A stretch of DNA of 18,973 nt from Candidatus Altiarchaeota archaeon (lineage in GTDB: Archaea > Altiarchaeota > Altiarchaeia > IMC4 > SCGC-AAA252-I15). The position numbers were made by a program, and so were the translations under genes. Location: assembly GCA_043800705.1 (NCBI GenBank), contig JAZDMS010000033.1:1-18973 (forward strand), in the 5' to 3' direction. The notes under the pieces are model-generated. The model made no database searches and was not told the origin of the DNA. It saw only the letters and a list, made by a program, of their open reading frames with translations. This document shows, in pieces, positions 1 to 18,973 of this stretch (position 1 is its first letter; each line of letters opens with the position of its first letter).

Positions 1-1
1 G

Positions 2-4095: not shown

Positions 4096-5364
4096 ATGGA
4101 CTTTGTCGTCTCCCCTGTCAAAACGCTGCGAGGCAGCGTCCAGGCTCCTGCAAGCAAGTCATACACCATAAGGGCGGTCCTTTCGGGGCTTTTGGCGGAC
4201 GGTGTGTCGACCATCCGCTGCCCGCTCCTTTCCCGGGACACCGAGGCCGCATTCAACGCGTGCCGGATGTTCGGCGCAAAGGTGGAGGAAGCAGGGGGCG
4301 GGGTGAGGATAACCGGCACCGCGGGGAAGGTCGCGACTCCTAAGGCCGCGCTCGACACGCTGAATTCGGGGACCACGATACGTCTCTGCACAGCGATCGC
4401 ATCGCTGTGCGACGGCGTTGTGTCCCTCACCGGGGACGCGTCCATCTGCAGGAGGCCGATCAAGCCGCTCCTTTTCGCGCTCGCGGACCTCGGAGTGAAG
4501 ACGTCGTCCGACGAAGGCAATCCCCCGGTGACGGTGGAGGGTCCCCTGCGCGGCGGAGTGTGCGAGATCCGCGGCGACGTCTCAAGCCAGTTCATCAGCG
4601 CGCTCCTCATGGCGGCCCCTTATGCGAAGAATGACGTGACCGTGAACATCAGCTCGAAGCTGAAGAGCAGGCCCTACGTGGATCTCACCCTCAACATGCT
4701 GAATCTCTTCAAGGTCGATGTCGAAAACGAAGGATATGCCCGGTTCAAGGTCCCATCCGGCCAGACCTACAAGGCGACGGACTACACGGTCGAAGGGGAC
4801 TTCAGCTCGGCGGCGTTCATCATCTCGGCGGCGGCGCTGACGGGCTCGGAGGTCACGGTAACGAACCTTTTCAGGGATTCCCTTCAGGCCGACAGGAGGA
4901 TAGTCGACATAGTCTCTAAGATGGGGGCGAAGGTCATGGTGGAAGACGACTCGGTCACCGTGAAGTCTGACGGCCGGCTTTCCGGGATACGGGTTGACAT
5001 GTCCGATTCCCCGGATCTCGTGCCGATAGTCTCCGTCCTCGGGGCTCTGGCCGACGGCAGGACGGAGATAGTGAACGCATATCATGCACGGCTGAAGGAG
5101 TGCGACAGGCTGAAGGCGATGGCAAGTGAGCTGAAGAAGCTGGGCGCGGATGTCACTGAGGAGGAGGATGCCCTCCTAATCAACGGGGGCAAATTGAATG
5201 GCGGCAGGGTGGACGGCTGGCTCGATCACAGGATAATCATGTCGATGGCGGTCGCAGGCCTGCGGGCCGATGGAGACGTCGTGATCTCCGGCGCGGAGCA
5301 TGTGGACGTCACCTTCCCGGGCTTCAAGTGCGCCATGGCAGGCTTGGGGGCGAAGATTACCTGA
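4096..5364 (+). CDS. aroA: 3-phosphoshikimate 1-carboxyvinyltransferase (EPSP synthase)
   Basis: PASKSYTIRA, NSGTTIR, SSQFISALL, SRPYVDLT, EGDFSSAAF, RLKECDRL, DHRI motifs; 422 aa. Confidence 0.97.
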   Translation: MDFVVSPVKTLRGSVQAPASKSYTIRAVLSGLLADGVSTIRCPLLSRDTEAAFNACRMFGAKVEEAGGGVRITGTAGKVATPKAALDTLNSGTTIRLCTAIASLCDGVVSLTGDASICRRPIKPLLFALADLGVKTSSDEGNPPVTVEGPLRGGVCEIRGDVSSQFISALLMAAPYAKNDVTVNISSKLKSRPYVDLTLNMLNLFKVDVENEGYARFKVPSGQTYKATDYTVEGDFSSAAFIISAAALTGSEVTVTNLFRDSLQADRRIVDIVSKMGAKVMVEDDSVTVKSDGRLSGIRVDMSDSPDLVPIVSVLGALADGRTEIVNAYHARLKECDRLKAMASELKKLGADVTEEEDALLINGGKLNGGRVDGWLDHRIIMSMAVAGLRADGDVVISGAEHVDVTFPGFKCAMAGLGAKIT

Positions 5365-5393
5365 GCTTATAGACGGAAACATAATGGTATAAC

Positions 5394-6227
5394 ATGGCCC
5401 TTTTAACCTGCGTGATTCCGGCATACAACGAGGAGCGGGTCGCAGAGACCGTGAACGGCCTGCAGAGCGTCCTGAAAGGGGTCGTCGGCTTCGAGATCAT
5501 CGTCGTGGACGACGGCAGCGCCAAACCGGTGGAGCTGAAGGGCGTCACCGTCATCAGGCATCATGTGAACATGGGATACGGGGCCGCGCTGAAGACTGGC
5601 ATGCTTCGGGCCAAGGGGGATCGGATACTCATAATAGACGCAGACGGCACATATCCTGTCGAGGACGTCCCCAAGCTGTTGGATGACGACTACGACATGG
5701 TGGTCGGGGCAAGGACCAAGGTGGATGCTAAAATAGAGCTCTACAGAAGGCCCGCCAAGTGGTTCCTCGGGCGACTGGCGAACTATCTTGCGAGGACCAG
5801 CATCCCCGACCTGAACTCCGGCATGCGGGTCTTCCGCAGGGAGGTCGCGATGAAATACCTCCACCTATACCCCCGGGGCTTCTCCTTCACCACGACCATC
5901 ACACTGGCGATGCTCTGCGACGACTACAGCGTGAAATACGTCCCGGTCGACTACAACGTCCGAAGAGGCAAATCCAAGATCCGGCCGCTCAAGGACGGCC
6001 TCAACTTCATCGCCATCATCCTGCGGACCATACTGTACTTCAACCCCCTGAGGATATTCCTGCCGATCAGCATGGCCATAATAGCGGCGGGGCTTCTCGT
6101 TTTCGCCTACACGTCAATCGTGCTCGGACGCGTCATGGACATAACCGTCGTGACCCTGATACTGTCAGGAGTCCAGGTCGCGCTATTCGGGATGCTCGCA
6201 GAGCTGATTGTGAAGCGGGCTCAATGA
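5394..6227 (+). CDS. Glycosyltransferase family 2 (DPM/DPG synthase-like) with two C-terminal TM helices
   Basis: VIPAYNEE, IIVVDDGS, NMGYGAALKTG, DADG, DLNSGMR motifs; hydrophobic C-terminus. Confidence 0.93.
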   Translation: MALLTCVIPAYNEERVAETVNGLQSVLKGVVGFEIIVVDDGSAKPVELKGVTVIRHHVNMGYGAALKTGMLRAKGDRILIIDADGTYPVEDVPKLLDDDYDMVVGARTKVDAKIELYRRPAKWFLGRLANYLARTSIPDLNSGMRVFRREVAMKYLHLYPRGFSFTTTITLAMLCDDYSVKYVPVDYNVRRGKSKIRPLKDGLNFIAIILRTILYFNPLRIFLPISMAIIAAGLLVFAYTSIVLGRVMDITVVTLILSGVQVALFGMLAELIVKRAQ

Positions 6228-6571
6228 GACAAAGTCTCCCTGTTTTTCCCGTCGACGGAGACAATCTTCGGCTTGTGGTCCTCGGCCTCCTTCTCGTCGA
6301 ACAGTCCGAACGACATTATGATTATTTTATCGCCTACGTTGACGAGTTTCGCAGCCGCCCCGTTGGCTTCGATCGCGCCCTTTCCCCCCTCGATGACGTA
6401 GGTCTCGAAGCGCTCCCCGTTAGTGATGTCCGACACGAGGACCTTCTCCCAGACGCAGAGGCCGACGGCCTCCATCAGGGCCTTGTCGATGGTGATGCTG
6501 CCGACATAGTCTACCCTGCATCCCGTCACCGTGGCACCGTGTATCTTGGACTTTAACATGCTTCTCATCAT
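6221..6571 (-). CDS. panD: Pyruvoyl-dependent aspartate 1-decarboxylase
   Basis: MLKSKIHGATVT, YVG|SITID self-cleavage site, NGERFETY, NGAAA, GDKIII. Start is ATG 6571 or 6568. Confidence 0.96.
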   Translation of the reverse strand: MMRSMLKSKIHGATVTGCRVDYVGSITIDKALMEAVGLCVWEKVLVSDITNGERFETYVIEGGKGAIEANGAAAKLVNVGDKIIIMSFGLFDEKEAEDHKPKIVSVDGKNRETLSH

Positions 6572-6608
6572 TGTTAGTTCATATACTGCCTTGATAAAAT
6601 AATAACAG

Positions 6609-7190
6609 ATGAAGCGGCTTTTGAAGGTTTTTCTGGCGATTGGGGTCGTCCTGTTGTTTGCAGCCGCCTATATTCTGATATTCGGCGTAGTCCCCCTGGA
6701 AGTCCGGCAGTCCTTTGAAGACTTCACGGAGTCTGGCAATCTCAGCATCCTTTGGTCGAAGTCGTGCACGATGGATCTGAGCGACACGGATAACCTGGTA
6801 GTCATGGCGCGTCTTCGGGAAAAAGGCTCTGACGCGGAGCTCGCGTGCTGGTGGAACCGCAAACCGGTCGGGTTCAGGGCGGGTGAGGGGCTGGTTTTTA
6901 ACGGCAGCACAGTCTACATGGATCAGTCCTGGATTGGGTGTGGAAAGGACTCCAACTTCACGCGGAATCTGCGGGAGGCGATATACGGGCCAGGGAGCGT
7001 AATCTATCTGGACGACAGGCCGGCCCGCAGGGAATATGGCACCTACTACGTCCTCGTCTCAAAATGCGCCTCCGGGTGTTGCGCATGCGGATGCAGTGCA
7101 GGGGGGCAGTCCAACCAGACCCCATCCGCCAACGCGACCTCCGCAGCGTATGCGGTCCTGGACGCCAAGACGAAGAGGATATACTGGTGA
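6609..7190 (+). CDS. Hypothetical membrane-anchored/secreted Cys-rich protein
   Basis: 193-aa ORF fills the gap between panD and the fumarase operon. Basic N-terminus plus hydrophobic helix, 8 Cys including CASGCCACGC, five N-X-S/T sequons. Confidence 0.75.
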   Translation: MKRLLKVFLAIGVVLLFAAAYILIFGVVPLEVRQSFEDFTESGNLSILWSKSCTMDLSDTDNLVVMARLREKGSDAELACWWNRKPVGFRAGEGLVFNGSTVYMDQSWIGCGKDSNFTRNLREAIYGPGSVIYLDDRPARREYGTYYVLVSKCASGCCACGCSAGGQSNQTPSANATSAAYAVLDAKTKRIYW

Positions 7191-7203
7191 TACCAGAAAA
7201 AAA

Positions 7204-7752
7204 TCATCGAATGAGCGCATTCAGCCTTTTGGCCGATTCCTCCTCGACCTGTCTGTATAGGTTGCCGCCTCTTGTGTCCATGGCGACTATGAGAGGTAAG
7301 TCTTCGACCTCGAAGAGCCAGAATGCCTCCGGCATCCCGAACTCGGAGAGCTTGTAGACGTCCCGCACTTTTATGATCCTCTCCGCCATGAGGGCTCCCG
7401 CCCCCCCTACGGCGGATAGGTAGACGCATCCGTATCTGGCGAGGGCCTTCCGGGTCTTCTCACCCATTCCCCCCTTCCCTATAACGGCCCGCACACCGAA
7501 CATCCTTATGATGTCCGCCTCGTACGGCTCCTCCCTTATGGAGGTCGTCGGCCCTGCTGACACCGCTTTGCCGTCTTTCACTATGGGGCCGCAGTGGTAG
7601 ATGACGTTCAGCGGGAACGGGGCCTTGCCGCCTTCTATGAGATATTTGTGGGCCATGTCGCGGGCTGTTACGATGTTCCCCGACAGCTCAACCCTGTCCC
7701 CGACGCAGAGCCTTCTTGTGTCATCCTCCGTCAGCGGGGTACGCAGCCTCAC
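7204..7752 (-). CDS. Class I Fe-S fumarate hydratase / tartrate dehydratase family, beta subunit
   Basis: LCVGDRVELSG, TARDMAH, YHCGP, SAGPTTSIR, IGKGGM, GMPEAFW, MDTRG. Start set to GTG 7752, which overlaps the alpha stop (GTGA) and follows a GAGGTGA RBS, rather than the track's 7791. Confidence 0.93.
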   Translation of the reverse strand: MRLRTPLTEDDTRRLCVGDRVELSGNIVTARDMAHKYLIEGGKAPFPLNVIYHCGPIVKDGKAVSAGPTTSIREEPYEADIIRMFGVRAVIGKGGMGEKTRKALARYGCVYLSAVGGAGALMAERIIKVRDVYKLSEFGMPEAFWLFEVEDLPLIVAMDTRGGNLYRQVEEESAKRLNALIR

Positions 7753-8600
7753 AGGCTCACCTCGATGCGGCCTCTTCGGCAGGCCCAGCACATGAAGGAG
7801 ACAGCGACGAAATACGACGCCGGGGCCCGGTGCATCTTCCCCGCCTTCACAGCCAGTGCCGTCGTCTTTCCCCCGAGCCCCATGGGGCCGATACCGAGCG
7901 AGTTGATGTCATCCAGCAGCTTTTTTTCCAGTCCGGCAAGTCTCTGGTCCGGGTTCCGGTCGGAGAGCGTTCGCATGAGCTGTCTCTTGCTCAGCGTCAG
8001 GGTCTCGTCCGCCAATCCACCGATCCCGACGCCGACGACATACGGGGGGCATCCCCTCCCCTGCGCCTTGTGGACGGCGTCCAGCACGCACCTGGCGACT
8101 CCATCCATGTCCCTGCCGGCCTTCAGGGGGGCGTCTGGGAGCCTGTAAAGCTGTGTCATGTTCTCGCTTCCGCCGCCTTTGAGCATAAGTTCGATCCGCA
8201 CCTTTTTCCTGCCCCATTCCCCGAAATGGATTACCGGGAAGCCGATGCCGGTATTGTCCCCGCTGTTGGCGCCTGTCACAGGATCGACGGCGTTTGGTCG
8301 CAGGGGGACGGTGCGTGTAGCGTCTCTCACCGCAGCCAAAATCTCCATCCTGATATTTTCCCTGTCGTAGGCTTTCGGGCTCGTCACATAGAATATGGGC
8401 GTGCCCGTGTCCTGGCACATGGGGCGGGAAAGCCTCCTTGCGGCCTTGATGTTCTCAAGCAGCGTCTCGATTATATCTTTGCCAGTCCCCCGCTCCCTCC
8501 TGTATGCGGTTTCAAGCGCGGATTGCACGTCTTTGGGAAGGCCGGTCGCGCATCTTCTCAGAAGCCCCCCTATGAGCTCACGCATCTTAATACGATTCAC
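7749..8600 (-). CDS. Class I Fe-S fumarate hydratase / tartrate dehydratase family, alpha subunit
   Basis: Fe-S ligand motifs PMCQDTG, GCPPY and CWACRR; KGGGSEN; GIGPMGLGGKTT. GTG start overlaps the malic enzyme stop (GTGA). Confidence 0.94.
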   Translation of the reverse strand: MNRIKMRELIGGLLRRCATGLPKDVQSALETAYRRERGTGKDIIETLLENIKAARRLSRPMCQDTGTPIFYVTSPKAYDRENIRMEILAAVRDATRTVPLRPNAVDPVTGANSGDNTGIGFPVIHFGEWGRKKVRIELMLKGGGSENMTQLYRLPDAPLKAGRDMDGVARCVLDAVHKAQGRGCPPYVVGVGIGGLADETLTLSKRQLMRTLSDRNPDQRLAGLEKKLLDDINSLGIGPMGLGGKTTALAVKAGKMHRAPASYFVAVSFMCWACRRGRIEVSL

Positions 8601-9859
8601 CCGAACGCCTTATATACCCTTTGAGCCTCCTCCACCATGGCCCGGACGTTTTTGGCGACTTCCCCCGGCTTTACGCGCCTTCTTGCCACGTCGCTTCTCA
8701 TGGCTGCGTCGGCGACCGCCGAAGCGACAGCGGGGACGACTTCGGGGTTCAGCGGATTCGTTATGATGCACTCTTTACTCAACTCGTCGTCCCTCACCAG
8801 CGAGGCGATCGCGTGCGCCGCTGCCATCTTCATCTCCTCGTTGATGCACTTCGCGCGCACATCCAATGCTCCGCGGAAGATTCCCGGAAAGCCGAGGACG
8901 TTGTTTATCTGGTTCGGATAGTCGCTGCGGCCGGTCGCGACCACCCTCGCGCCCGCAGCCAGCGCCTTTTCCGGAGCGATCTCCGGGTCCGGGTTCGCGC
9001 AGGCGAAGACGATCGCATCCTTGCCCATTGACCTTACCATCTCCTCCGAGACGACGTTGCCGACGGAGAGGCCGACGAAGATGTCGGCGCCCGCCATCGC
9101 ATCCGCAAGCGAGCCTTCAATGCCCCCCTTATTGGTCTCCTTCGCGATCTCATGCTTGTAGGGGTTCATCCCCTCGGTGCGGCCTTCGTATATTGTGCCT
9201 TTGGTGTCGCACATTATGACGTCATTGACTCCCGCGCTGAGGTAGAATTTTGCGCATGCCAGGGCTGCGGCTCCGGCTCCGTTGAATATTATCCTGACGT
9301 CGCCGATGTCCTTTCCGACGACCTTGAGGGCGTTGATGAGCCCCGCAAGCGTGACGATGGCGGTCCCGTGCTGGTCGTCGTGCATCAGCGGAAGCTTAAT
9401 CTCCTCCTTGAGCCTGCGCTCTATCTCGAAGCACCTGGGCGAGGCGATGTCTTCGAGGTTGAAGCCTCCGAACGACGGCTCCAGGGCCTTGACCGTCCTG
9501 ACGATCTCGTCAATGTCCTTCGTCCTTAGGCATATCGGGTAGGCGTCGACTCCCGCCAGCATCTTCAGGAGCACGGCCTTCCCCTCCATCACAGGAAGCC
9601 CCGCTTCGGGACCGATGTCGCCGAGGCCCAGGACCGCGGACCCGTCCGATACGACGGCGACGGCGTTGCCTTTGTTGGTGTAGTCGTAGACCCTTTCCGG
9701 GGACTTCTCTATGGCCCGGCAGGGCTCCGCGACTCCGGGGCTGTAGGCGAGGCTCATGTCCCTCATGTCGGAGAGCGGCGTCTTGGCTATGACCGAAAGC
9801 TTGCCTTGGCGCCTTGCATGGTACTCCAGCGCCTCGTCGGCTGTGAATCTGACTGACAT
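8597..9859 (-). CDS. NAD(P)-dependent malic enzyme (no phosphotransacetylase domain)
   Basis: LAYSPGVAEPC, DGSAVLGLG, PVMEGK, NLEDI, HDDQHGTA, GAGAA, ANPDPEI, TGRSDYPNQINN. Start uncertain (9886, 9871 or 9859); 9859 preferred because AAGGGGA precedes it and a TATA-like TTTTAT sits at 9890-9885 on the minus strand. Confidence 0.95.
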   Translation of the reverse strand: MSVRFTADEALEYHARRQGKLSVIAKTPLSDMRDMSLAYSPGVAEPCRAIEKSPERVYDYTNKGNAVAVVSDGSAVLGLGDIGPEAGLPVMEGKAVLLKMLAGVDAYPICLRTKDIDEIVRTVKALEPSFGGFNLEDIASPRCFEIERRLKEEIKLPLMHDDQHGTAIVTLAGLINALKVVGKDIGDVRIIFNGAGAAALACAKFYLSAGVNDVIMCDTKGTIYEGRTEGMNPYKHEIAKETNKGGIEGSLADAMAGADIFVGLSVGNVVSEEMVRSMGKDAIVFACANPDPEIAPEKALAAGARVVATGRSDYPNQINNVLGFPGIFRGALDVRAKCINEEMKMAAAHAIASLVRDDELSKECIITNPLNPEVVPAVASAVADAAMRSDVARRRVKPGEVAKNVRAMVEEAQRVYKAFG

Positions 9860-9983
9860 ATTCCCCTTCATTGAATTCGCATCCATAAAAACCCGGCGGT
9901 TTCCTGGAGGAATCCTGGAATATTGGTTCGATCATGCAGATGGCCGCATTTATTTTGCGTACCCTTCAATACATATCAGTAAA

Positions 9984-11075
9984 ATGAACACATTCGGCTC
10001 GCTCTTTAGAGTTACCACATGGGGCGAAAGCCACGGGCCCGCAGTCGGCTGCGTCGTGGACGGATGCCCAAGCAACCTCGAGATATCCGTGGAGGAGGTG
10101 CAGAGGGAACTTGATCGCAGGAGGCCGGGGCAGAGCGAAGTCACCACGCAAAGGCAGGAGCCGGACGCAGTGGAAATCCTATCCGGGCATTTCGAGGGGA
10201 AAACCACAGGCTCCCCGATAAGCATGCTCGTCAGAAACAGGGACTCCGATCCGACAAAATACAGGGAGTTCATCGACAAGCCCAGGCCAGGCCACGCGGA
10301 CCTGACGTGGAGGATGAAGTTCGGGCACGTCGACTGGCGCGGCGGAGGGAGAGCCAGCGCGAGAGAGACTGTAGGCAGGGTTGCGGCCGCTGCAGTAGCA
10401 AAAAAAATCCTTCAAAGATTCAAGATCCAGACGATAGCCTACACGAAACAGATAGGTGGAATCAGGTCTGAGGAGGTCTTCGACTCACCTGTGAAGGGAC
10501 TCACAGACCTCATAGACTCAAACACAGTAAAGGCCTTGGACGCAGCGGCCGCGCATGAGATGGAGGCTGCTGTCAAGGAGGCCGCACGCCAGGGCGACTC
10601 ACTCGGGGGGATAGTCGAATGCGTCGTGTTCAATGTTCCGCCGGGCCTCGGGGAGCCCGTCTTCGGGAAGATGAGCTCGGAGCTTGCCGCCGCCATGATG
10701 TCCATTCCGGCGTCGAAGGGCGTGGAATTCGGCATCGGCTTCAAGGCCGCGTCGATGGCGGGAAGCCAGGTCAACGACGAATACTTCAACGAAGGCGGCA
10801 GCGTGCGCACGAGGACAAACAACGCCGGCGGCATACAGGGAGGCATCACCAACGGGATGCCAATAATTTTGCGGGTCGCGTTCAAGCCTACGGCCTCGAT
10901 CAGAAAAAGACAGAAGACCGTGGACCTGAAGACCGGAAAACCCGCCTACATTACGATCGAAGGCCGCCACGACCCCTGCGTAGTCCCGCGGGCGGTGCCA
11001 GTCGTGGAGGCCATGGTGAACCTCGTATTGGCCGACCAGATGATGCTGGCGGGGCATATACCGCGCAGACTCTGA
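9984..11075 (+). CDS. aroC: Chorismate synthase
   Basis: MNTFG..FRVTTWGESHG, RRRPGQS, RPGHAD, RGGGRASARET, SIPASKGVEFG, NNAGGIQGGITNG, FKPTASI, GRHDPC. Start is ATG 9984; the track's 9756 start overlaps the malic enzyme gene. Confidence 0.98.
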   Translation: MNTFGSLFRVTTWGESHGPAVGCVVDGCPSNLEISVEEVQRELDRRRPGQSEVTTQRQEPDAVEILSGHFEGKTTGSPISMLVRNRDSDPTKYREFIDKPRPGHADLTWRMKFGHVDWRGGGRASARETVGRVAAAAVAKKILQRFKIQTIAYTKQIGGIRSEEVFDSPVKGLTDLIDSNTVKALDAAAAHEMEAAVKEAARQGDSLGGIVECVVFNVPPGLGEPVFGKMSSELAAAMMSIPASKGVEFGIGFKAASMAGSQVNDEYFNEGGSVRTRTNNAGGIQGGITNGMPIILRVAFKPTASIRKRQKTVDLKTGKPAYITIEGRHDPCVVPRAVPVVEAMVNLVLADQMMLAGHIPRRL

Positions 11076-11094
11076 CCTGCTCAAGATTTTCGCA

Positions 11095-11250
11095 TCACAT
11101 CTGCTCGAGCTCCTTCTTCAGTTTCGCGAGTTCCTCGTGGTTCTTCGGGTTCTTCCTGAGTGGGTCCATCCTGCATTTCTGCTCCAGCTCCTCGATTCTC
11201 GCCTTCAGCTTCGTCTTCCCCTTCGCAAGGTCCCTTTTGCTCATGCCCAT
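11095..11250 (-). CDS. Small basic helical protein, 51 aa (MGMSKRDLAKGKTKLKARIEELEQKCRMDPLRKNPKNHEELAKLKKELEQM)
   Basis: Hand-translated; below the ORF-track cutoff. GAGGTGA RBS at 11261-11255, host-like AAG/GAG/CTG codons, fills the aroC-pstS gap. Confidence 0.8.
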   Translation of the reverse strand: MGMSKRDLAKGKTKLKARIEELEQKCRMDPLRKNPKNHEELAKLKKELEQM

Positions 11251-11313
11251 ATGTTCACCTCGTTGGTATCATGTTTGGCTTAAACATATATTAATCGCCA
11301 AGCAGATTGTTAA

Positions 11314-12243
11314 GTGATGCGCAAGGGTTTATCCGCGGTTTTTATCCTGATAGTGCTTATAGCAGGCTGCGAAAGCAGGCAGGAATCGATCAAGGTATCG
11401 GGCGCGTTCGCATTGTATCCCCTGATGGTGAAATGGGCCGACGAGTACCAGAAGCTCCACCCCGGCGTGAGGATCGAGGTGTCGGCGGGCGGGGCCGGCA
11501 AAGGGATGTCGGACGCGCTTTCCGGCCTTGTCGAGATCGGGATGATTTCACGGGACATCGACCAGTCCGAGGTCGACAAGGGGGCGTTCTACGTTGCCGT
11601 CGCGAAGGATGCGGTCGTGCCGACGGCGAACCGGAACAATCCCTTGGCGCAGGAGCTGAAGGGTCGCGGACTCACAAAGGCGGAGTTCAAGGAGGTCTTC
11701 GTCATCGGCAACCGGACGCGGTGGGGCAGCCTCGTCGGCGCCGACGCGGCGGACGATAGGATATCTCTCTACACCAGGGCCGACTCCTGCGGCGCAGCGG
11801 ACATATGGGCCAAGTTCATGGGCGCCAAGCAGGAGGACCTGAAGGGCATCGGAGTAAACGCCGACCCCGGCATCGCGGATGCTGTCTCGAGGGACAGAAA
11901 CGGGATGGGATACAACAACATCGGATTCGCATACGACGAGAAGACCGGCAAGCCGATGGGCGACCTCATGATCCTGCCGATAGACATAAACGGCGACGGA
12001 AGGGTCAGCGAGGACGAGAGCTTCTACGACGACCGTCAGAGCATACTCGACGCCATACTGGCCGGCAAATACCCGTCTCCGCCGGCAAGGGACCTCTACA
12101 TCGCGACGAAGGGGAATTTCAGCGGCTCCGCCGGGGAATTCGTCAGGTGGATGCTGACCGACGGCCAGCAGTATGTCCCCGAGGCCGGATACATCCCGCT
12201 AGCAAAGGACCGGCTGCAGGAGCAGGTCAGGAAGCTGGGTTAG
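11314..12243 (+). CDS. pstS: Phosphate ABC transporter substrate-binding lipoprotein
   Basis: Lipobox-like LIAGC after a hydrophobic signal; SGAFALYPL, SAGGAGKG, GMISRD, VAKDAVV, YTRADSCGAA; precedes pstCAB. Start is GTG 11314 or ATG 11317. Confidence 0.92.
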   Translation: MMRKGLSAVFILIVLIAGCESRQESIKVSGAFALYPLMVKWADEYQKLHPGVRIEVSAGGAGKGMSDALSGLVEIGMISRDIDQSEVDKGAFYVAVAKDAVVPTANRNNPLAQELKGRGLTKAEFKEVFVIGNRTRWGSLVGADAADDRISLYTRADSCGAADIWAKFMGAKQEDLKGIGVNADPGIADAVSRDRNGMGYNNIGFAYDEKTGKPMGDLMILPIDINGDGRVSEDESFYDDRQSILDAILAGKYPSPPARDLYIATKGNFSGSAGEFVRWMLTDGQQYVPEAGYIPLAKDRLQEQVRKLG

Positions 12244-12247
12244 CCGT

Positions 12248-13135
12248 ATGGACCGGGTGAAGCTCGACAAGGCGGCGGGCATCCTGATGAAGGCCCTAGC
12301 ATCCTCCTCCCTGCTCATACTTTTCTTGATCGTGATAGGCCTGCTCTCCAAGTCGGAGATGATACTCTCCGCGGAATCGCTCCCCCAGCTCATCCTCTCG
12401 TCGGACTGGAAGCCGTCGAGGGGGCTCTTCGGCTTCTACCCGTTCATAACCGGGACCATCCTCGTCACGTTCTCGACGATGGTCTTTTCGGTCCCCCTCT
12501 GCCTGCTTGCCGCCATATACCTCGCTGAATACGCTAGCAAGGGATTCAGGTCGACGGTGAAAGGGGGGATAGACACGCTGGCGGGGATACCGTCGGTCAT
12601 ATTCGGGCTGTGGGGGGTCCTTTTCATCGTCCCCTTCATCCGCGACTTTGTGGCGCCGGCGTTCGGCTATGAGACCTCGGGCTACTGCATACTCTCAGGC
12701 TCGCTCGTCCTGACTCTCATGGTCGTCCCCATCATGCTCTCCATCATGCAGGAGATAATCATGTCGGTCCCCCAGGACCTGAAGGAATCGTCCTACGCGG
12801 TGGGTGCGACTAGGTGGGAGACGATAAAGAAGATAATACTCCCGAAGACGTCGGCCGGGCTTTTCTCCGCCGTCATCCTCGGATTCAGCAGGGCCTTCGG
12901 CGAGACGATGGCAGTCCTGATGGTTGTCGGCAACGTGGCCTCCAACGCCCAAAGCCCGTTCGATCCCGTCTACCCTCTGACGGCGCTGATAGCGAACAAC
13001 TACGGGGAGATGATGTCGGTCCCCCTGTACGAGTCTGCGCTCCTGTTCGGCGCCCTACTCCTTCTGATGCTCGTAGTCGCATTCGACCTCTTCGCCAGAT
13101 ACGTCATTAGAAGGCTGCATGCGGAGGGCTGTTAG
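12248..13135 (+). CDS. pstC: Phosphate ABC transporter permease PstC
   Basis: AIYLAEYA, LAGIPSVIFGLWG, VPQDLKESSYAVGATRWETI, RAFGETMAVLMVVGN. Confidence 0.96.
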   Translation: MDRVKLDKAAGILMKALASSSLLILFLIVIGLLSKSEMILSAESLPQLILSSDWKPSRGLFGFYPFITGTILVTFSTMVFSVPLCLLAAIYLAEYASKGFRSTVKGGIDTLAGIPSVIFGLWGVLFIVPFIRDFVAPAFGYETSGYCILSGSLVLTLMVVPIMLSIMQEIIMSVPQDLKESSYAVGATRWETIKKIILPKTSAGLFSAVILGFSRAFGETMAVLMVVGNVASNAQSPFDPVYPLTALIANNYGEMMSVPLYESALLFGALLLLMLVVAFDLFARYVIRRLHAEGC

Positions 13136-13987
13136 ATGGATGCAAGACGGCTTGAAGAGGCTGCGTTCAAGGCTCTGGGCCTCGCGTCGATACTGATAAT
13201 AATATCCTGCCTTCTTCTGATGATCCTCACTATCCTGATAAAGGGATTGCCGGGATTGAGCTGGGCGATGGTGAGTCAGGAGCCCCAAAGCGGATTCTAC
13301 CTCGGCGGCGGAGGCGGGATACTCAACGCGATAATCGGCTCGATCTACCTCGCTGCCGGAGGGACCGCGCTGGCGTTCGCCGTCAGCCTCCCGACGGCGA
13401 TATTCCTGCAGAGGGAATATTCCGACGGGTCGGGGCTGGCCGAGGCCATCAGGTCATGCCTCGACATCCTCTGGGGAATACCCTCTATCATATACGGGGC
13501 GTTCGGGTTCATCATCATGCTCTACCTTGGGATGAGGGCGTCCCTGCTTGCAGGCATCCTGTCCCTGGCGTTCGTCGTCTTCCCGATAATGACCCGCTCA
13601 TTCGACGAGATACTCAGGACCATCCCACCGGAACTCAAGGAGGTCTCCTACGCGGTCGGGGCGACCCGCCTGGAGACGATGCTGTCCGTGACCCTCAGAC
13701 AGGCGGCCCCCGGTATATTGACGGGGATCATACTGTCCTTCGGCAGGGCCATAGGCGACGCGGCCTCGATCCTGTTCACCGCGGGATACTCTGACCAGGT
13801 GCCAAGGTCGCTGATGGACCCGGTGGCGTCGCTGCCCCTTGCGATATTCTTCCAGTTCGGCACCCCCTACCAGGCCGTCCAGGCGAGGGCCTACACGTCG
13901 GCGGTCATTTTACTCCTTATAGTGCTATTATTGACTTCGATGACCAGGATCATGAGCAGCATATCCAGGAGGTATCTCATACGATGA
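13136..13987 (+). CDS. pstA: Phosphate ABC transporter permease PstA
   Basis: GGGILNAIIGS, LWGIPSIIYGAFG, ELKEVSYAVGATRLET, GRAIGDAA; TAGATG junction with pstC. Confidence 0.95.
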   Translation: MDARRLEEAAFKALGLASILIIISCLLLMILTILIKGLPGLSWAMVSQEPQSGFYLGGGGGILNAIIGSIYLAAGGTALAFAVSLPTAIFLQREYSDGSGLAEAIRSCLDILWGIPSIIYGAFGFIIMLYLGMRASLLAGILSLAFVVFPIMTRSFDEILRTIPPELKEVSYAVGATRLETMLSVTLRQAAPGILTGIILSFGRAIGDAASILFTAGYSDQVPRSLMDPVASLPLAIFFQFGTPYQAVQARAYTSAVILLLIVLLLTSMTRIMSSISRRYLIR

Positions 13988-14979
13988 CGGAGGAGTACAT
14001 ACGGATCGAGGACCTGAACATCCTGCAGGGGCAGAAGGACCTATTGAAGGACATCAACCTCCAGATCCCTGAGAAGAGGATAATATGCGTCATCGGCCCT
14101 TCAGGCTGCGGGAAGACCATATTCCTGCGGTGCTTCAACAGGTTCATAGACTACAACGAGGACCTGAAGGCGACCGGCAGGATACTCATCGACGGCATGG
14201 ACGCCCTCGACCCCGCAATCGACGTCATCAGCCTCAGGACGACCGTTGGCATGATACTGCAGACGCCGTATCCCCTGCCTATGAACATCTACGACAACGT
14301 CGCATACGGGCCCAGGCTCCACGGGATAAAGGACAAAGTGGCGCTAGACGGGATCGTCGAAGGCAGCCTCAAGCAGGCCGCCCTCTGGGAGGAGCTGAAG
14401 GGCAGGCTGCATGAACCTGCCACGAGGCTGTCAATCGGCCAGCAGCAAAGGCTCTCGCTCGCACGGGTCCTCGCAGTCAAGCCGAGGATACTCGTATGCG
14501 ACGAGCCCACCTCCGCCCTGGACCCAGTCTCCTCGAAGAAGATAGAGGAACAGCTCCTGAAGCTTCGGAAGAACTACACCATCATCCTGTCGACGCACAA
14601 CATCCACCAGGCAAAGCGCCTCGCGGACTACGTCATCTACCTCTACCTCGGCAGCCTCATCGAGCACGGCCCCGCGGACGAAATCTTCAACAACCCCAAA
14701 CACGAGCGGACGAAGGCATACCTCAAAGGCGAATACTACGAGGATTACACGGTCGACAGGGAACTCGACCTCAGGGAATACGGCTCTCCCGCGAACTTCC
14801 TCAAGGCGAAGGAGGCCATAGACGGGCTCCGGCTGGAGCAGGTCCTGAGAATCGTCGTGAACACGCGGGAAGCCCTCCGAGACATTCCCCCCGGCCTCGA
14901 GACCGAAGGCCACAAGATCATCCACCGCAAGAAGCTGAACGACGTAGACTGGGAGATAGTAGTCAGGAAGATGGAGTAG
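13984..14979 (+). CDS. pstB: Phosphate ABC transporter ATPase PstB with C-terminal TusA/SirA-like extension
   Basis: Walker A GPSGCGKT, NIYDNVAYG, signature LSIGQQQR, Walker B DEPTSALDP, THN switch, PstB end IFNNPKHERTKAYLKG, then about 80 extra residues. ATGA overlap with pstA. Confidence 0.94.
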   Translation: MTEEYIRIEDLNILQGQKDLLKDINLQIPEKRIICVIGPSGCGKTIFLRCFNRFIDYNEDLKATGRILIDGMDALDPAIDVISLRTTVGMILQTPYPLPMNIYDNVAYGPRLHGIKDKVALDGIVEGSLKQAALWEELKGRLHEPATRLSIGQQQRLSLARVLAVKPRILVCDEPTSALDPVSSKKIEEQLLKLRKNYTIILSTHNIHQAKRLADYVIYLYLGSLIEHGPADEIFNNPKHERTKAYLKGEYYEDYTVDRELDLREYGSPANFLKAKEAIDGLRLEQVLRIVVNTREALRDIPPGLETEGHKIIHRKKLNDVDWEIVVRKME

Positions 14980-15015
14980 GATGATGCTCCGCATGGTTGC
15001 ATCCCGGATACGGGC

Positions 15016-15969
15016 TCATGGATGAATCGCTCTCCCCTTCGAATCCAAGACGATGCCGAAGCATTCCCTGAATATCCTCACGCAGTCAGCCTCGTCCTGC
15101 GCGTTGAATACGGCGTATCCTTCCGGGACGCCGGTGCCTTTGTCGTTGACTGCGACATAAGTCTCAACCCTCAGGGTGTCCCTGATCTCCTTAAGGAGGT
15201 TCAGCTGCTGCTGCAGGTCGGCCTGCGGGTCGATGATGTAAAGGACGAAGTCTGCGAGGTGCCTGATGGCGAGTATCGCCTGCAGCTCCACGTGGTTTCG
15301 TTCGCTCATCGGCCTGTCAAGGATCCCCGGCGAGTCGATTATCTGGTATTCGTCGTGCCTTATGCTCTTGTAGCCGATCATTATGTCCGTCGTCGTGAAA
15401 GGGTATGATGCGACCTTGATCTTGGAGCCCGTAAGCGTCCTCACGAACGTGCTCTTTCCCGCGTTCGGTATCCCTGCCACGACGAGCGTCGGCTCGTCCT
15501 TGAAGAATGGGAAGCTCCTCAGCGCCTTCTTGACATCCTGGAGGAACTTAAGGTCGGATTTGACCCTCTTCACGAACGACGCCGCCCTGCCTAAAAACGG
15601 CATGCTCTGCTCGGTGTCCTTCGTCGTCTTCAGCTTCCTGAGCGTCTTCTGCTGGAGGGATTCGACGCGGTCCGCGGCCCAGTTCACTGCCCCGATGCTC
15701 TTCTTGTACTTGTCCTTCTTGACCCTCAGGTCGAGGAGGTACTGGTGGAACTCGGACAGGTCCTCGAACTGGGGGAAGCGCTCGACGATCGCGTTCAAAT
15801 GGCCTGTGATGATGTTGCCTGCGACCAACACCCTCCTGATTTCCCCTGTCAGTATCTTCTCAGGGACCTTCGGCCCCATGGCACGGGCCCTCTTCGCCTC
15901 CATCGACCCGGCCTTATAGGCCTTGTCTATGAGGTCCTCTGCGGACGGGACGTCGGGAATCTTAAACAT
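15016..15969 (-). CDS. NOG1-family (OBG-like) GTP-binding protein
   Basis: Helical N-domain (VPSAEDLIDKAY...FPQFEDLSEF), G1 GIPNAGKS, G2 YPFTT, G3 DSPGILDRPMSERN..ELQAILA. Confidence 0.93.
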   Translation of the reverse strand: MFKIPDVPSAEDLIDKAYKAGSMEAKRARAMGPKVPEKILTGEIRRVLVAGNIITGHLNAIVERFPQFEDLSEFHQYLLDLRVKKDKYKKSIGAVNWAADRVESLQQKTLRKLKTTKDTEQSMPFLGRAASFVKRVKSDLKFLQDVKKALRSFPFFKDEPTLVVAGIPNAGKSTFVRTLTGSKIKVASYPFTTTDIMIGYKSIRHDEYQIIDSPGILDRPMSERNHVELQAILAIRHLADFVLYIIDPQADLQQQLNLLKEIRDTLRVETYVAVNDKGTGVPEGYAVFNAQDEADCVRIFRECFGIVLDSKGRAIHP

Positions 15970-16014
15970 AGTATATTATAACCCCGCACTAGTATAATAT
16001 CAGGTGATATCCAA
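15970..16014. promoter_or_regulatory. Compact bidirectional promoter with RBS
   Basis: 45-bp gap with ATATTATA (15973-15980) and its reverse complement TATAATAT (15993-16000); AGGTGA RBS at 16002-16007 before ATG 16015. Confidence 0.6.
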
Positions 16015-16365
16015 ATGGCAAAACAAACGGTAAAGGTCAAGCATCTGGGTCTGGTATCTACAGGAAAATTCTTTGCGGTGTTCTGGTTCATCTTCAGCCT
16101 GATTCTGACCGTGATATTCGGCGTATTCTTCGGCTTCTTCGCCCTATTGTCGACGGTGTTGGGCCTAGGTTTCGGCGGGTCGGATGCCATCCTGCCGACG
16201 ATCATGATGCTTGTCATGAACGTCGGCTTTTTCCTGGTGATGGCGGTAATCCTGCTAGTAGTCTATCCGATAATGGGATGCATCATCGGCTTCGTGGGCG
16301 CGTTCGCCTTCAACATGGTAGTGAAGCTTTCGGGAGGCCTGTCGTTCGACGCGGAGATCGCCTGA
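16015..16365 (+). CDS. Small two-TM membrane protein, DUF3566-like
   Basis: VKVKHLGLVSTGK, two long hydrophobic segments, C-terminal FNMVVKLSGGLSF resembling the DUF3566 YN..a...GGi pattern (recognised by eye); good RBS. Confidence 0.75.
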   Translation: MAKQTVKVKHLGLVSTGKFFAVFWFIFSLILTVIFGVFFGFFALLSTVLGLGFGGSDAILPTIMMLVMNVGFFLVMAVILLVVYPIMGCIIGFVGAFAFNMVVKLSGGLSFDAEIA

Positions 16366-16369
16366 GGGT

Positions 16370-17449
16370 ATGGCGAATCTGGCCTTCATCGGAGACTGCC
16401 ACCTCGGATTCAGGCATAGGGGCAAGGTCCAGAGGCTCAGGGACTACTCCAAGGCCTTCGAGGAGGCGGTAGACAAGGCCCTTCAGCGGAAGGCGGACGC
16501 AGTCGTCTTCATGGGCGACCTCGTCCACCACTCCAAGCCCGACCCCGTCAGCCTCAGGACGGTCCTGAAGAAGCTCATGGAGGCCGCACAAAAGATCCCA
16601 GTGATCGTCTGCATAGGCAACCACGAGATTGAGGGGCATTTGGGCACTACGTATTCGCCGATCTACGGCGACGTCCACCCCGGCATCCACGTCCTCACCT
16701 CGGAGCATCCGCACGTCGAGATCAGCTTGGGCGGCAGGTCCTACGGGTTCCACGGGTTCGAATACACGCGGTCGAGGGAGTCGGCGGAGGACAAGCTCAA
16801 GGGACTCTCCCAGGGCGCGAAAGCCGACGTGAACATCCTGTGCCTCCACCAGGCCATAGAGAAGTACCTGAGCCCCTGCGAGATATCCCTGTCGGCGCTC
16901 AGGCACGCGGCCCCCTCCTACGACCTGATCGTGTCCGGCCACGTCCACAAGCACCAGGAACTCAGGGAGATCTCGGACGTCACGCCCACATTCTACTGCG
17001 GCTCCACGGAGCGGATCAGCTTCAACGAAGCGGAGAACGATAACGGCTTCATGTTCTTCTCAGGCGACGGATGGGCCGCTGCGGAGTTCGTCCACGTGGA
17101 TTCGGCGCCGATGGCATACGTCCGCGAGGAATTCCAGGGCAGCGCAGCCGAACTGAACACAAGGGTCGAAAAGATCATTGCGGCAAATCCCGCGAAGCTC
17201 CTGAAGATCGAGGTCCTGGCCGACCTGAAGGGGGACATCATAGACGTCCGAAGGGACTGGACCGCATTCGAGGACGGCAGGACCGTCCTTGAGGTATCGG
17301 TGATGCCGAAGACGCAGGAGGCCGAGATCCAGCTGGAGAAGGTGGAACTCAACGAAGACCTGATCAGGGAATACTTCAGGAAGTCAGGCAACGAAAACAA
17401 AGAGATGGAGGGCCTATGCATCGACCTCTTCAGGAGATACGGCGCCTGA
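16370..17449 (+). CDS. mre11: Mre11/SbcD-family DNA repair nuclease (metallophosphoesterase)
   Basis: Phosphoesterase motifs GDCHLG, GDLVH, GNHE, CLHQ, SGHVH, plus YCGSTERISFNE; capping region and C-terminal helical tail; 359 aa. Confidence 0.85.
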   Translation: MANLAFIGDCHLGFRHRGKVQRLRDYSKAFEEAVDKALQRKADAVVFMGDLVHHSKPDPVSLRTVLKKLMEAAQKIPVIVCIGNHEIEGHLGTTYSPIYGDVHPGIHVLTSEHPHVEISLGGRSYGFHGFEYTRSRESAEDKLKGLSQGAKADVNILCLHQAIEKYLSPCEISLSALRHAAPSYDLIVSGHVHKHQELREISDVTPTFYCGSTERISFNEAENDNGFMFFSGDGWAAAEFVHVDSAPMAYVREEFQGSAAELNTRVEKIIAANPAKLLKIEVLADLKGDIIDVRRDWTAFEDGRTVLEVSVMPKTQEAEIQLEKVELNEDLIREYFRKSGNENKEMEGLCIDLFRRYGA

Positions 17450-17465
17450 GACAGATGACTAAAGC

Positions 17466-17496
17466 TTATTTACCGGAACGCCGCCATCTATTATCC
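17466..17496 (+). promoter_or_regulatory. Putative TATA-type promoter for radB
   Basis: AAAGC then TTATTTACC at 17466-17474, beginning 31 nt before ATG 17497. Confidence 0.5.
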
Positions 17497-18183
17497 ATGG
17501 TCATACGGTTCAACACCGGCTTCGACGACCTCCTAGGCGGAGGCGTCCTGGAAGGCGTCATAACCCACTTATTCGGCCCTCCCGCGTCGGGGAAGTCCAA
17601 CCTGGCATTGGTCGCGGCTGCCAACGCCATCGGCCAGGGCAAGGTACTCTTCGTCGACCCCGAAGGCGGCTTCAGCGTCGAGAGGCTCAGGCAGGTCTCG
17701 GGGGACCGGTTCATGGACGTCCTAAACAACATCATCCTCGTGCAGCCTACCACCTTCGAGGAGCAGAAGGCAGCGATCGCGAAGCTGGAAGACGTCGTGA
17801 CGTCGATGAAGGTGGCACTCATTGTGGTCGACAGCATCGCCATGCTCTACAGGATGGAGGAGGACAAGGACGTCAGGATGCTCGGCAGGACTCTCGCCCA
17901 GCTTCTTCGCCTGGCCAGGAAATATAACCTCCCAGTCCTCCTCACCAATCAGGTCTACAGCGAATACGACACCAACATAGTCCGGCCGATCGGCGGAACC
18001 ATAACCGAATACTTCACGAAGAACATGGTCGAACTCGGGCGCGACGAACGGAACATGAGGATAGCGACCCTCAAGAGGCACCTGTTCAAACAGGAAGGAG
18101 AATCATTAACGTTCAGGATAACGCAGAAGGGTGTCGAGACAGAGCGAGTGACTGTATCTGGAAGTATAGATAACAATGTATGA
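17497..18183 (+). CDS. radB: DNA repair and recombination protein RadB
   Basis: RecA-like core without the RadA N-domain: TGFDDLLGGGV, Walker A GPPASGKS, FVDPEGGFSVERL, Walker B LIVVDS, LLTNQV, RPIGG. Start moved from 17416 (overlaps mre11) to ATG 17497. Confidence 0.92.
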   Translation: MVIRFNTGFDDLLGGGVLEGVITHLFGPPASGKSNLALVAAANAIGQGKVLFVDPEGGFSVERLRQVSGDRFMDVLNNIILVQPTTFEEQKAAIAKLEDVVTSMKVALIVVDSIAMLYRMEEDKDVRMLGRTLAQLLRLARKYNLPVLLTNQVYSEYDTNIVRPIGGTITEYFTKNMVELGRDERNMRIATLKRHLFKQEGESLTFRITQKGVETERVTVSGSIDNNV

Positions 18184-18343
18184 GCATCATCTGGCGACTT
18201 CACCCTCAAGACGGGTGACAGGTATAATCAATCGGCCCTAAACGCAAAGATCCTACGAATTGCGCAACACAACAGAATAAAACATCAGCGGACGAATATC
18301 GGGAGAATCTATGGTTAAAAACGTGTAATTCTCCATTATTAAT

Positions 18344-18973
18344 ATGGTCCTTGTGGAAAATGCAGTCCCTACCGTCAGGCAAACTCAGGAACAAAAAAGC
18401 CAGCAGACTGTGTTTCCCGGAATATTGGGCAAAAATGAAGGCGGATTACCCCCGATTTTAGCTAGTCAAACTGGTCAATCCCATATCAAAACAGCTGAAA
18501 GGCAGAAAACAGGAAGGAGATCGGCCATCCATCATAAGCTGGCTTTCCTGGATACTCGATCGTATATGGATGGAATTCATAGTGCTGAGGAACGTGGATA
18601 TATCCTGTATTTTCCAGATAATCCAAACCGGGAAAATTATGAATCCTGGAAATATGAACATATTTTTGATAAGTGGAAGCATCTGCCTTATGAAAATCCT
18701 ATCTATGAAAGTATTTTTGATCCGAAAATATCTCTTTACACGCCGCCAAATAAACTATTGCACCCCCTGGGAGAAGCATGCATTTGTTTAAATGGAGTAG
18801 GATATCCGAATCAGGCAAGAGACACTCCCGGTGGCAAGATAGCAGAAGAAAACTCCAGGAAACTTTCAAAAGTGGGGGAAATTGGCATCAGATACTACGG
18901 GGGTCATTTTGCTCCAAGATGGCTCGAACTGGGTGCAGGCATTGGTGTGGCAGCATCTAGAGTTAATCAAGAG
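18344..18973 (+). CDS. 3'-truncated AT-rich ORF, putative class I SAM-dependent methyltransferase
   Basis: Hand translation gives 210 sense codons with no stop (MVLVENAVPTVRQ...FAPRWLELGAGIGVAASRVNQE). Motif I-like WLELGAGIG at 18920-18946; TTAAAAA at 18315-18321 upstream. The ORF is well supported; the function rests on one motif. Confidence 0.7.
   Translation, partial: MVLVENAVPTVRQTQEQKSQQTVFPGILGKNEGGLPPILASQTGQSHIKTAERQKTGRRSAIHHKLAFLDTRSYMDGIHSAEERGYILYFPDNPNRENYESWKYEHIFDKWKHLPYENPIYESIFDPKISLYTPPNKLLHPLGEACICLNGVGYPNQARDTPGGKIAEENSRKLSKVGEIGIRYYGGHFAPRWLELGAGIGVAASRVNQE

Follow-up and report, generated by a model that had tools for sequence, protein, structure and literature searches.

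What could a sulfur-carrier fold do at the end of the ATPase of a phosphate-type importer, and what could it do there without its reactive cysteine? The question is raised by contig JAZDMS010000033.1 of a Candidatus Altiarchaeota archaeon (assembly GCA_043800705.1), of which positions 1 to 18,973 of the forward strand were analysed; this whole stretch of 18,973 nucleotides is called the window below. It holds an operon that is a four-gene ATP-binding cassette (ABC) importer, made up of a binding protein, two permeases and an ATPase. The ATPase resembles PstB and continues into a TusA-fold tail. The original prediction, made from the sequence alone, took this protein to be PstB, the phosphate ATPase, fused to a TusA/SirA-like domain with serine in place of the catalytic cysteine. 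The fusion is real and conserved and, as an architecture, apparently undescribed. Our best overall explanation, to which we give an even chance of being right, is that the operon encodes a Pst-derived importer of sulfate or thiosulfate, and that the tail would serve it as a cysteine-independent regulatory or docking module.

The reading frame is exactly as first described, extending for 82 residues (250–331) beyond TKAYLKG. The Pfam TusA profile (PF01206, gathering cut-off 28.6 bits) matches the whole protein at residues 259–329 over its full length (profile positions 1–70 of 70; 42.3 bits, E 6.6e-11) and scores the tail alone at 46.4 bits (E 3.6e-12). The tail is the sole TusA match in the assembled genome. 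AlphaFold2 gave predicted local distance difference test (pLDDT) values of 90.2 for the full-length model and 90.5 for a tail-only model; in the latter the predicted fold is β-α-β-α-β-β (elements E13–16, H24–34, E41–46, H49–61, E65–71 and E77–82). When the tail was compared with the PDB using Foldseek, nine matches were obtained at E ≤ 0.001, every one of them TusA/SirA/YeeD-like. The leading matches are the YeeE–YeeD complex (8j4c), E. coli YhhP/TusA (1dcj; TMq 0.79, root-mean-square deviation 1.6 Å) and IscS–TusA (3lvj); 1dcj, 3lvj, 3hz7 and 8j4c are all matched at E ≤ 7e-4. A test of the tail for a NIL/ACT-like or TOBE fold was negative, with TusA alone appearing in both Pfam and Foldseek. 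Two narrower NCBIfam models score below their cut-offs, the YeeD-like NF041048 at 17.6 bits (cut-off 147.5) and the selenium-related YedF model at 19.7 bits (cut-off 79). A prediction of a two-copy tail complex (alignment A3, without control runs) gave no verdict on pairing, at a score of 0.00 and a mark of 0.42. By profile and by predicted fold the tail is a member of the TusA family; it fails the functional hallmark of that family, the reactive cysteine.

TusA proteins carry a CPxP motif, and the Cys-Pro at the start of helix 1 holds the persulfide, which requires a thiol. In the window codon 268 is TCT, giving Ser268 between Gly267 (GGC) and Pro269 (CCC), and residues 250–331 contain no cysteine, so the original account of the tail holds in its three structural points: the continued frame, the TusA/SirA-like domain and the replaced cysteine. 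Asn271 occupies the place of the second proline of CPxP, both here and in nearly all fused relatives. Because the reactive cysteine is replaced, the tail cannot carry a persulfide in this organism. The serine is itself not conserved. The window's clade is represented by 21 full-length and three partial sequences; in these 24, position 268 is Thr in nine, Pro in five, Ala in five, Glu in three and Ser in two, and Cys in none; the 21 full-length sequences read T8, P5, A3, E3 and S2. The earlier suggestion that the serine might be a modification site is therefore dropped. Position 268 is among the most variable columns of the tail, flanked by invariant G267, P269 and N271, and it drifts freely in this archaeal clade.

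It might still be supposed that the tail is an active sulfur relay, acting through another residue or through a partner's cysteine. Its TusA fold and its nearest structures, YeeD and TusA, would suit such a role, and the cysteine-bearing relatives may well act in this way. Set against it are the lack of any cysteine in residues 250–331, the T/P/A/E/S spread at the equivalent position in close relatives and the need of a persulfide for a thiol. YeeD is reported to be essential for thiosulfate uptake, the residue that becomes modified being its conserved cysteine (PMC11073785). For the window's tail we consider a relay very improbable.

Is the tail then a recurrent domain, or an accident of this contig? 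With the tail as query, and with lengths restricted to a range set for the full protein, a search of 5.8 billion proteins yielded 42 candidates, of which 25, counting the query, reached E ≤ 0.001. Each of these 25 carries precomputed PF00005 and PF01206 annotations; tail identity to the window's is 64–82% in 23 relatives and 43% in one. In a separate scan of one genome per species, in which loci were found by the pattern LSIGQQQRL, at least 594 ATPase relatives were recovered and the best 80 analysed. Of these best 80, 25 (L010–L034) match through residue 329 or beyond and are thus fused. Their hosts are an uncultured archaeon, many Candidatus Methanoperedens, Planctomycetota (including Brocadiaceae), Omnitrophota, Desantisbacteria and a genome labelled Deltaproteobacteria. 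Within the window's order the fused form occurs in five of 49 genomes, the window's own counted, and all five belong to the window's family. A lost stop codon or an assembly error is excluded as the cause, since the combination of ABC_tran and TusA was met again in 24 relatives from the database search, in 25 genomes of the species scan and in four other genomes of the family. The public names of the relatives are 'phosphate transport system ATP-binding protein', 'ATP-binding cassette domain-containing protein' and a WtpC-like designation.

Most fused relatives outside the window's clade have kept the cysteine. It is present at the equivalent of position 268 in 19 of 23, namely all 12 of the Methanoperedens group (as Cys-Pro), P0025 and six of ten other bacterial rows; L031 and L032 have Cys-Ser instead of Cys-Pro. 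Cys-Pro is also found in two contig-truncated Methanoperedens fused genes and is retained in several of the Planctomycetota fused relatives. Four bacterial fused genes have Tyr, Ala or no alignable motif at this place, and three fused representatives or fragments (P0026, P0055 and P0068) are without the cysteine. The nearest stand-alone TusA-like proteins inspected have it in seven of seven cases. Since the cysteine occurs in most of the more distant fused relatives and in stand-alone TusA-like proteins, it is best read as ancestral; on this comparison the fusion is old, began with a Cys-Pro motif and lost the cysteine more than once. The original prediction left it undecided whether orthologues read Cys-Pro or Ser-Pro: Ser-Pro is read in two of the 24 close relatives, while none of the 24 has Cys-Pro, and Cys-Pro is found in most of the distant fused relatives.

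A tail that has lost its cysteine could be a vestige, a once-active sulfur carrier now decaying neutrally. The loss in this clade and the freedom of position 268 would fit that idea, as would the loss or truncation of tails elsewhere (L042, of 282 residues, diverges just past Cys-Pro) and the interleaving of unfused with fused genes on the ATPase tree. The conservation of the rest of the domain does not fit. The 21 full-length relatives are 60–90% identical to one another, yet mean pairwise identity is 72–73% for the tail and 75% for the ATPase domain, and all 21 keep their length within 2–3 residues. Invariant columns number 28 of the 77 tabulated (residues 255–331), including G267, P269, N271 and W323-E324-I325-V326, and Y255, in the linker, is invariant in 21 of 21. 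The predicted fold is also confident. Because the tail is about as conserved as the ATPase and has 28 invariant columns, it does not appear to be decaying, and we regard a vestige as quite improbable.

Some further TusA-like genes and tails were met in these searches. L042 (L042:5989–6834, Methanosarcinaceae) nests in the fused Methanoperedens clade; its tail can be followed up to Cys-Pro, after which the sequence diverges and stops, and it may be frameshifted or truncated. Five genomes of the order that lack the fused gene (G012, G031, G032, G045 and G047) have stand-alone open reading frames (ORFs) of 83–94 residues that are 34–40% identical to the tail. No stand-alone TusA-like gene, the split form of the fusion, was found beside the unfused operons (0 of 55 loci); the sole one lies in a fused locus, L033. 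Proteins of JAB/MPN type with a C-terminal TusA-like domain were also seen, one with Cys-Pro (P0079) and two with Leu-Pro (P0088 and P0171), and TusA-like domains without the cysteine are therefore not unique to the ATPase fusion.

The ATPase domain itself departs from PstB. It has the expected motifs (Walker A GPSGCGKT, Walker B ILVCDEP and H-loop STHNIHQAK) with an ABC signature that reads LSIGQ. The PstB equivalog model TIGR00972 is its best family match, but the score over residues 6–250 is 313.7 bits, below the cut-off of 343.2. Scores across the order are bimodal, with 24 canonical matches (in 23 genomes) at 366–427 bits and the five fused proteins at 305–330; the canonical PstB open frames are about 244–303 residues long. 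The CysA model TIGR00968 gives only about 120 bits on fused relatives. A quick IQ-TREE analysis of 129 ATPase domains under a mixture model separated 23 canonical PstB from 106 rows of the branch with a Shimodaira–Hasegawa-like approximate likelihood ratio (SH-aLRT) of 100. The signature is LSIGQ in 106 of 106 branch rows and LSGGQ in 23 of 23 canonical rows, a count that is partly circular for the species-scan loci, which were found by LSIGQQQRL; the fused genes from the tail search and the family models are independent of that pattern. The branch matches listed (at least 599 stretches) come from Bacteroidota, Omnitrophota, Chloroflexota, Planctomycetota, Methanoperedens and other archaea. 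By scores and tree the ATPase belongs to a distinct, widespread, Pst-derived branch.

The binding protein departs further. It scores 110.8 bits on the PstS family model TIGR02136, for which the cut-off is 206.6. All six binding proteins of the branch that match are below this cut-off (87–123 bits), and the candidate at L024 gives no match at all; those of five canonical operons in related genomes are all above it (228–265 bits). We aligned 63 branch binding proteins, the window's included, with the five canonical ones. SGA[FW]A.YP in the branch replaces GSTT..P of canonical PstS, GGAGKG replaces GGGSG.G, and RSD[AS]CGA replaces RE.GSGT; the residue after Ser-Arg, Glu in canonical PstS, is variable. 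The differing motifs are what we take to be the ligand-contacting segments, with Thr10, Ser38, Asp56, Arg135, Ser139 and Thr141 as the ligands in E. coli PstS. On this assignment the hydroxyl donors would have given way to Ala, Lys, Cys and an aromatic residue, with the loss of an acidic residue that is otherwise conserved. The pocket of the sulfate-binding protein has no acidic acceptor. The branch motifs are common to fused and unfused, archaeal and bacterial members, and by alignment the pocket appears to have been remodelled and then conserved across the branch. We note that the cysteine in RSD[AS]CGA, conserved where canonical PstS has Ser, is unusual for an extracytoplasmic binding protein.

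The neighbouring genes in bacteria point to sulfur. Genes for a 3′-phosphoadenosine 5′-phosphosulfate (PAPS) reductase-family protein (PAPS_reduct), adenosine 5′-phosphosulfate (APS) kinase or ATP sulfurylase flank three of 11 bacterial fused loci (L028, L029 and L033), and such genes recur beside unfused operons; the counts cover loci of this branch alone. At L033 a stand-alone Cys-Pro TusA-like gene, an APS kinase and a PAPS-reductase-family gene lie upstream, with ATP sulfurylase, a cysteine-synthase-type PALP enzyme, ThiF and a JAB protein downstream. ATP sulfurylase lies downstream at L029. At L028 a PAPS-reductase-family gene is found upstream, and a Cys/Met pyridoxal-phosphate enzyme fused to ThiS lies downstream together with ThiF. 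A PALP enzyme and a chromate transporter lie upstream at L024, an Rrf2 regulator is near L034 and a DsrE-like gene near L025. In seven of the 55 unfused loci the first two ORFs downstream of the ATPase include a PAPS-reductase-family gene, in some cases of CysD size; APS kinase, an EF-Tu-like CysN-type GTPase and Rrf2 each accompany it once. Any sulfur-linked neighbour is found in 16 of 55 when Rrf2, PALP, sulfatases, arylsulfotransferase, a CysQ-like phosphatase and chromate transporter are added. The TusA-like protein at L033 (L033:1679–1915, 79 residues) keeps an intact Cys-Pro-x-Asn-Phe directly upstream of the APS kinase, in the same cluster as a fused ATPase tail without the cysteine. 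Porins also flank bacterial operons, with Alginate_exp in six Bacteroidota loci (L053, L072, L076, L077, L082 and L084) and Porin_O_P or Porin_5 families in three fused loci (L027, L030 and L028), which suggests a dedicated path for the anion across the outer membrane.

These neighbours, taken with the pocket, lead us to infer that the transported ion would be a sulfur oxyanion, sulfate or thiosulfate, and not phosphate. The description of the protein as PstB, the phosphate ATPase, is accordingly not one that we retain: the ATPase does not reach the curated cut-off for PstB, nor the binding protein that for PstS, and the branch is linked in bacteria to genes of sulfate assimilation. The sulfur reading seems well grounded for the bacterial members; for the archaeon it is an extrapolation by way of the shared, conserved binding-protein pocket.

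The ion might instead be another tetrahedral oxyanion, such as molybdate, tungstate or selenate, with the tail tying uptake to molybdenum-cofactor or selenium metabolism. Methanoperedens and anammox-type Planctomycetota depend on molybdenum and tungsten enzymes, and fused forms are common in both among the loci listed. One close relative bears the automatic name WtpC-like, the weak tail matches include YedF, and one study is reported to link a TusA-like protein with the homeostasis of molybdenum (PMC3568144). We nevertheless find this improbable. No molybdenum-cofactor or selenium genes were present among the 198 neighbour ORFs scanned, the recurrent neighbours are those of sulfate activation and reduction, and the weak NCBIfam matches lie far below their cut-offs.

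Several observations weigh against a sulfur oxyanion as the substrate. The reading draws on gene neighbourhood and on a pocket comparison that takes its presumed ligand positions from E. coli PstS. The PstC and PstA of the window's operon pass the curated cut-offs of phosphate permeases (259.1 against 196.45 and 212.4 against 193.45 bits). No sulfur genes lie beside the archaeal fused loci, the window's included, and the neighbours of some bacterial fused loci have a phosphate flavour: the phosphate-selective porin family (L027 and L030), a PhoB/PhoR-like pair (L025) and PhoU (L024). The archaeon's own genome does contain, at L090:6231–8239 (contig C42, minus strand), a CysD-like PAPS_reduct-family gene of 265 residues beside an EF-Tu-like, CysN-like GTPase of 519 residues, and a cysteine-synthase homologue; the CysD-like protein, however, reaches 225.6 bits on TIGR02039 against an equivalog cut-off of 396.6, and Sat-type ATP sulfurylase, APS kinase and sulfite reductase were not found in this genome. 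In favour of the sulfur reading, a search for a SulP transporter found none there. The genome, 87.55% complete, also yielded no other PstB, no PiT and no PhoU, so that if the window's system does not import phosphate, the phosphate importer of this organism has not been found in its genome. Across the order CysD-like genes, all below the equivalog cut-off, occur in 13 of 49 genomes, that is in three of the five with the fused form and ten of the 44 others; this association is weak, and we discarded a link between fusion and sulfate activation within the order as too weak for support. As to the history of the fusion, the ATPase tree does not give a single fused clade: unfused genes are interleaved with fused ones, and the fused label needs seven changes, at least three of them forced by well-supported branches. 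The CysD-like/CysN-like pair lies near an AbiEii-type gene and glycosyltransferases.

These points bear on the possibility that the system does after all import phosphate, as a Pst of a second type in which the TusA-fold tail is a built-in regulator doing the work of PhoU. In its favour, PstC and PstA score above their equivalog cut-offs, and no family model fits the ATPase better than that of PstB. A Pfam scan confirmed the earlier observation that the window has no PhoU, and a search of the assembled genome, at 87.55% completeness, found none; nor was a second PstB or a PiT found there. Within the order PhoU was not found in three of the five fused genomes, compared with four of the 44 others, and a gene of the phosphate-porin family, a PhoB/PhoR-like pair or PhoU stands near four bacterial fused loci. 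(PhoU in the loci of other species was called by Pfam scans, since phmmer and hmmsearch seeded with the PhoU of L024 were too insensitive, finding only that protein itself.) The three fused genomes without PhoU are, however, only 71–88% complete, and the distribution of PhoU elsewhere does not follow the tail.

In the order PhoU lies within 400 bp downstream of 22 of the 24 canonical PstB genes and of none of the five fused genes; of the two remaining canonical genes one has its PhoU at a distance of 2 kb and the other lies where its contig ends. Among the 25 fused loci of other species PhoU occurs in one (L024), 2.8 kb away and on the other strand, and it was found in none of the 55 unfused branch loci, where the first one or two downstream ORFs were scanned (89 in all, 49 loci having any). 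Since unfused members also lack an adjacent PhoU, its absence is a trait of the branch and not a consequence of the tail. PhoU is present somewhere in the genome in five of five other fused genomes tested. In genome G039, which is 92% complete and belongs to the window's genus, the fused gene and a canonical pstB–phoU occupy separate contigs, and a second, higher-scoring type of PstB was found in three of five bacterial branch genomes tested. The fused system is thus a paralogue beside a classical Pst–PhoU system. The proposal that the tail might stand in for PhoU does not survive these comparisons, and with the remodelled pocket far below the PstS cut-off and the sulfate-assimilation neighbours in bacteria, we think phosphate import unlikely, though less so than the other alternatives considered here. 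One genome of the order, G022, has two canonical pstB–phoU sets about 5 kb apart on contig C29.

How, then, would a sulfate or thiosulfate importer use a TusA fold that has no cysteine? The importer would descend from the phosphate system Pst as a separate branch and bring in sulfate or thiosulfate. In this organism the tail would involve no sulfur chemistry and would be an accessory module of the importer on the cytoplasmic side. The regulatory domains of MetN, ModC, CysA and MalK sit under the ATPase dimer, and the tail, on its eight-residue linker, would be placed in the same position. There its most likely task would be to bind a ligand, either the transported anion or a sulfur metabolite further downstream, or to dock a partner, and by doing so to tune the ATPase and transport, as in the trans-inhibition exerted by the C-terminal domains of MetN, ModC and CysA. 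In relatives that bear the cysteine the tail may in addition accept sulfur from thiosulfate as it leaves the transporter, as YeeD is reported to do on YeeE. The original comparison with the regulatory tails of MetN, ModC and MalK stands in part: the fused domain without a cysteine is real and a regulatory or accessory role is the most reasonable kind, while the more specific roles offered for it, serine modification and substitution for PhoU, fall away.

A more specific form of this proposal is possible, and we put it forward tentatively. The branch would be a Pst-derived sixth family of prokaryotic sulfate/thiosulfate importers, recognised by its LSIGQ ATPase and its Ala/aromatic/Lys/Cys pocket. 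The tail, joined to the ATPase in one part of this family, would be, where the cysteine is present, an exit-side receiver that strips sulfur from thiosulfate and, where it is absent, a sensor of the anion or of a metabolite that shuts the pump at sulfur sufficiency.

The layout of the operon and of the fused gene is collected in Table 1. The ATG of the ATPase gene overlaps the stop codon of the PstA-type permease in the ATGA at 13984–13987.

Table 1. Features of the importer operon and of the fused gene in the window
Feature	Position	Strand	Basis
Substrate-binding protein, PstS-like but divergent	11314..12243	+	Pfam PBP_like_2, 110.4 bits; start codon uncertain (GTG as listed)
PstC-type permease	12248..13135	+	TIGR02138 259.1 bits, cut-off 196.45; Pfam BPD_transp_1
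PstA-type permease	13136..13987	+	TIGR00974 212.4 bits, cut-off 193.45
Fused gene, PstB-like ABC ATPase with TusA-fold tail, 331 aa	13984..14979	+	ORF translation; Pfam ABC_tran and TusA
Nucleotide-binding domain, residues 1–250	13984..14733	+	TIGR00972 match over residues 6–250
Short linker, residues 251–258 (YYEDYTVD)	14734..14757	+	Alignments; conserved in the window's clade
TusA-fold domain, residues 259–329	14758..14970	+	Pfam TusA; AlphaFold2; Foldseek
Codon TCT for Ser268, at the place of the TusA persulfide Cys	14785..14787	+	Read from the sequence

Elsewhere in the window the gene content is archaeal, with MCM, RadB-like, Mre11-like and NOG1-like genes in the Pfam and ORF scan. The ORF at 6609–7190 encodes 193 residues with an N-terminal hydrophobic segment and a cysteine-rich stretch near the C-terminus, and it has no Pfam match at E ≤ 1e-5. 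The chorismate synthase ORF at 9756–11075, as listed, has about 80 extra N-terminal residues, the Pfam match starting at residue 84; translation probably begins at a later start codon.

We found no description of a PstB–TusA fusion or of a Pst-like sulfate importer in the open-access papers searched. The original statement that no such fusion had been described is upheld to that extent, and needs amending in that the architecture is not rare in metagenomes. The main text of a review of sulfate transporters recognises five families and does not contain 'Pst', 'PhoT' or 'phosphate ABC' (PMC5840216), and the main text of a paper that compares how methanotrophic archaea assimilate sulfur mentions neither Pst, ABC nor TusA. 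The whole operon is probably misnamed. If our reading is right, the genes of hundreds of species that automatic annotation now calls 'phosphate ABC transporter' would encode importers of sulfur compounds, inferences on nutrient cycles drawn from metagenomes would change, and one more family would join the five recognised kinds of sulfate transporter. A new fold would also be added to those that exert trans-inhibition in ABC importers; we know of no earlier case of a sulfur-carrier fold as the accessory domain of an ABC ATPase. The natural variants with and without the reactive cysteine would constitute a ready-made experiment in the passage from catalytic carrier to regulator. The system bears on how Methanoperedens, a nitrate-dependent methane oxidiser, and anammox-type bacteria acquire sulfur. 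Should phosphate be carried instead, this would still be an undescribed, PhoU-independent type of Pst with a built-in domain.

Among known systems YeeE–YeeD is the closest functional precedent. YeeD (TsuB; 8j4c, 8k1r) is the best structural match of the tail and, as proposed for the tail, is a TusA fold at the cytoplasmic face of a sulfur-oxyanion importer; YeeE and YeeD are reported to have been crystallised as a transporter–TusA fusion, a precedent for joining the two. The differences are plain: the partner of YeeD is the channel YeeE (TsuA) and that of the tail an importer ATPase, YeeD has a conserved, modified cysteine and the window's tail has none, and the two are 17–19% identical in the structural alignment. 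With TusA/SirA/YhhP (PF01206; 1dcj, 3lvj) the tail shares the end-to-end profile match, the fold and the proline after the cysteine position, but those are free proteins of about 80 residues with the cysteine, whereas the tail is fused, lacks it and has Asn271 for the second proline.

Other ATPases, of type I ABC importers, carry C-terminal regulatory domains, of C2/NIL type in MetN and of TOBE type in ModC, CysA and MalK. Like these, the window's protein has an extra folded domain directly after the nucleotide-binding domain, and by analogy the TusA tail would likewise be expected to control transport from the cytoplasmic side, though its fold is TusA-like and not NIL or TOBE. The classical sulfate ATPase CysA is itself one of those with a C-terminal tail. 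The canonical PstSCAB–PhoU system shares with the window's operon the four-gene layout, the PstC and PstA models that are passed and PstB as the best match of the ATPase. It differs in its LSGGQ signature in place of LSIGQ, its pocket, its adjacent phoU and its scores above the cut-offs, and the window's type occurs as a paralogue beside it. SulT (CysPTWA/Sbp) corresponds to the role proposed here, being an ABC importer of sulfate and thiosulfate with a periplasmic binding protein, and in bacteria cys genes adjoin both; to judge from the low CysA scores of the fused relatives, however, it is of a different lineage.

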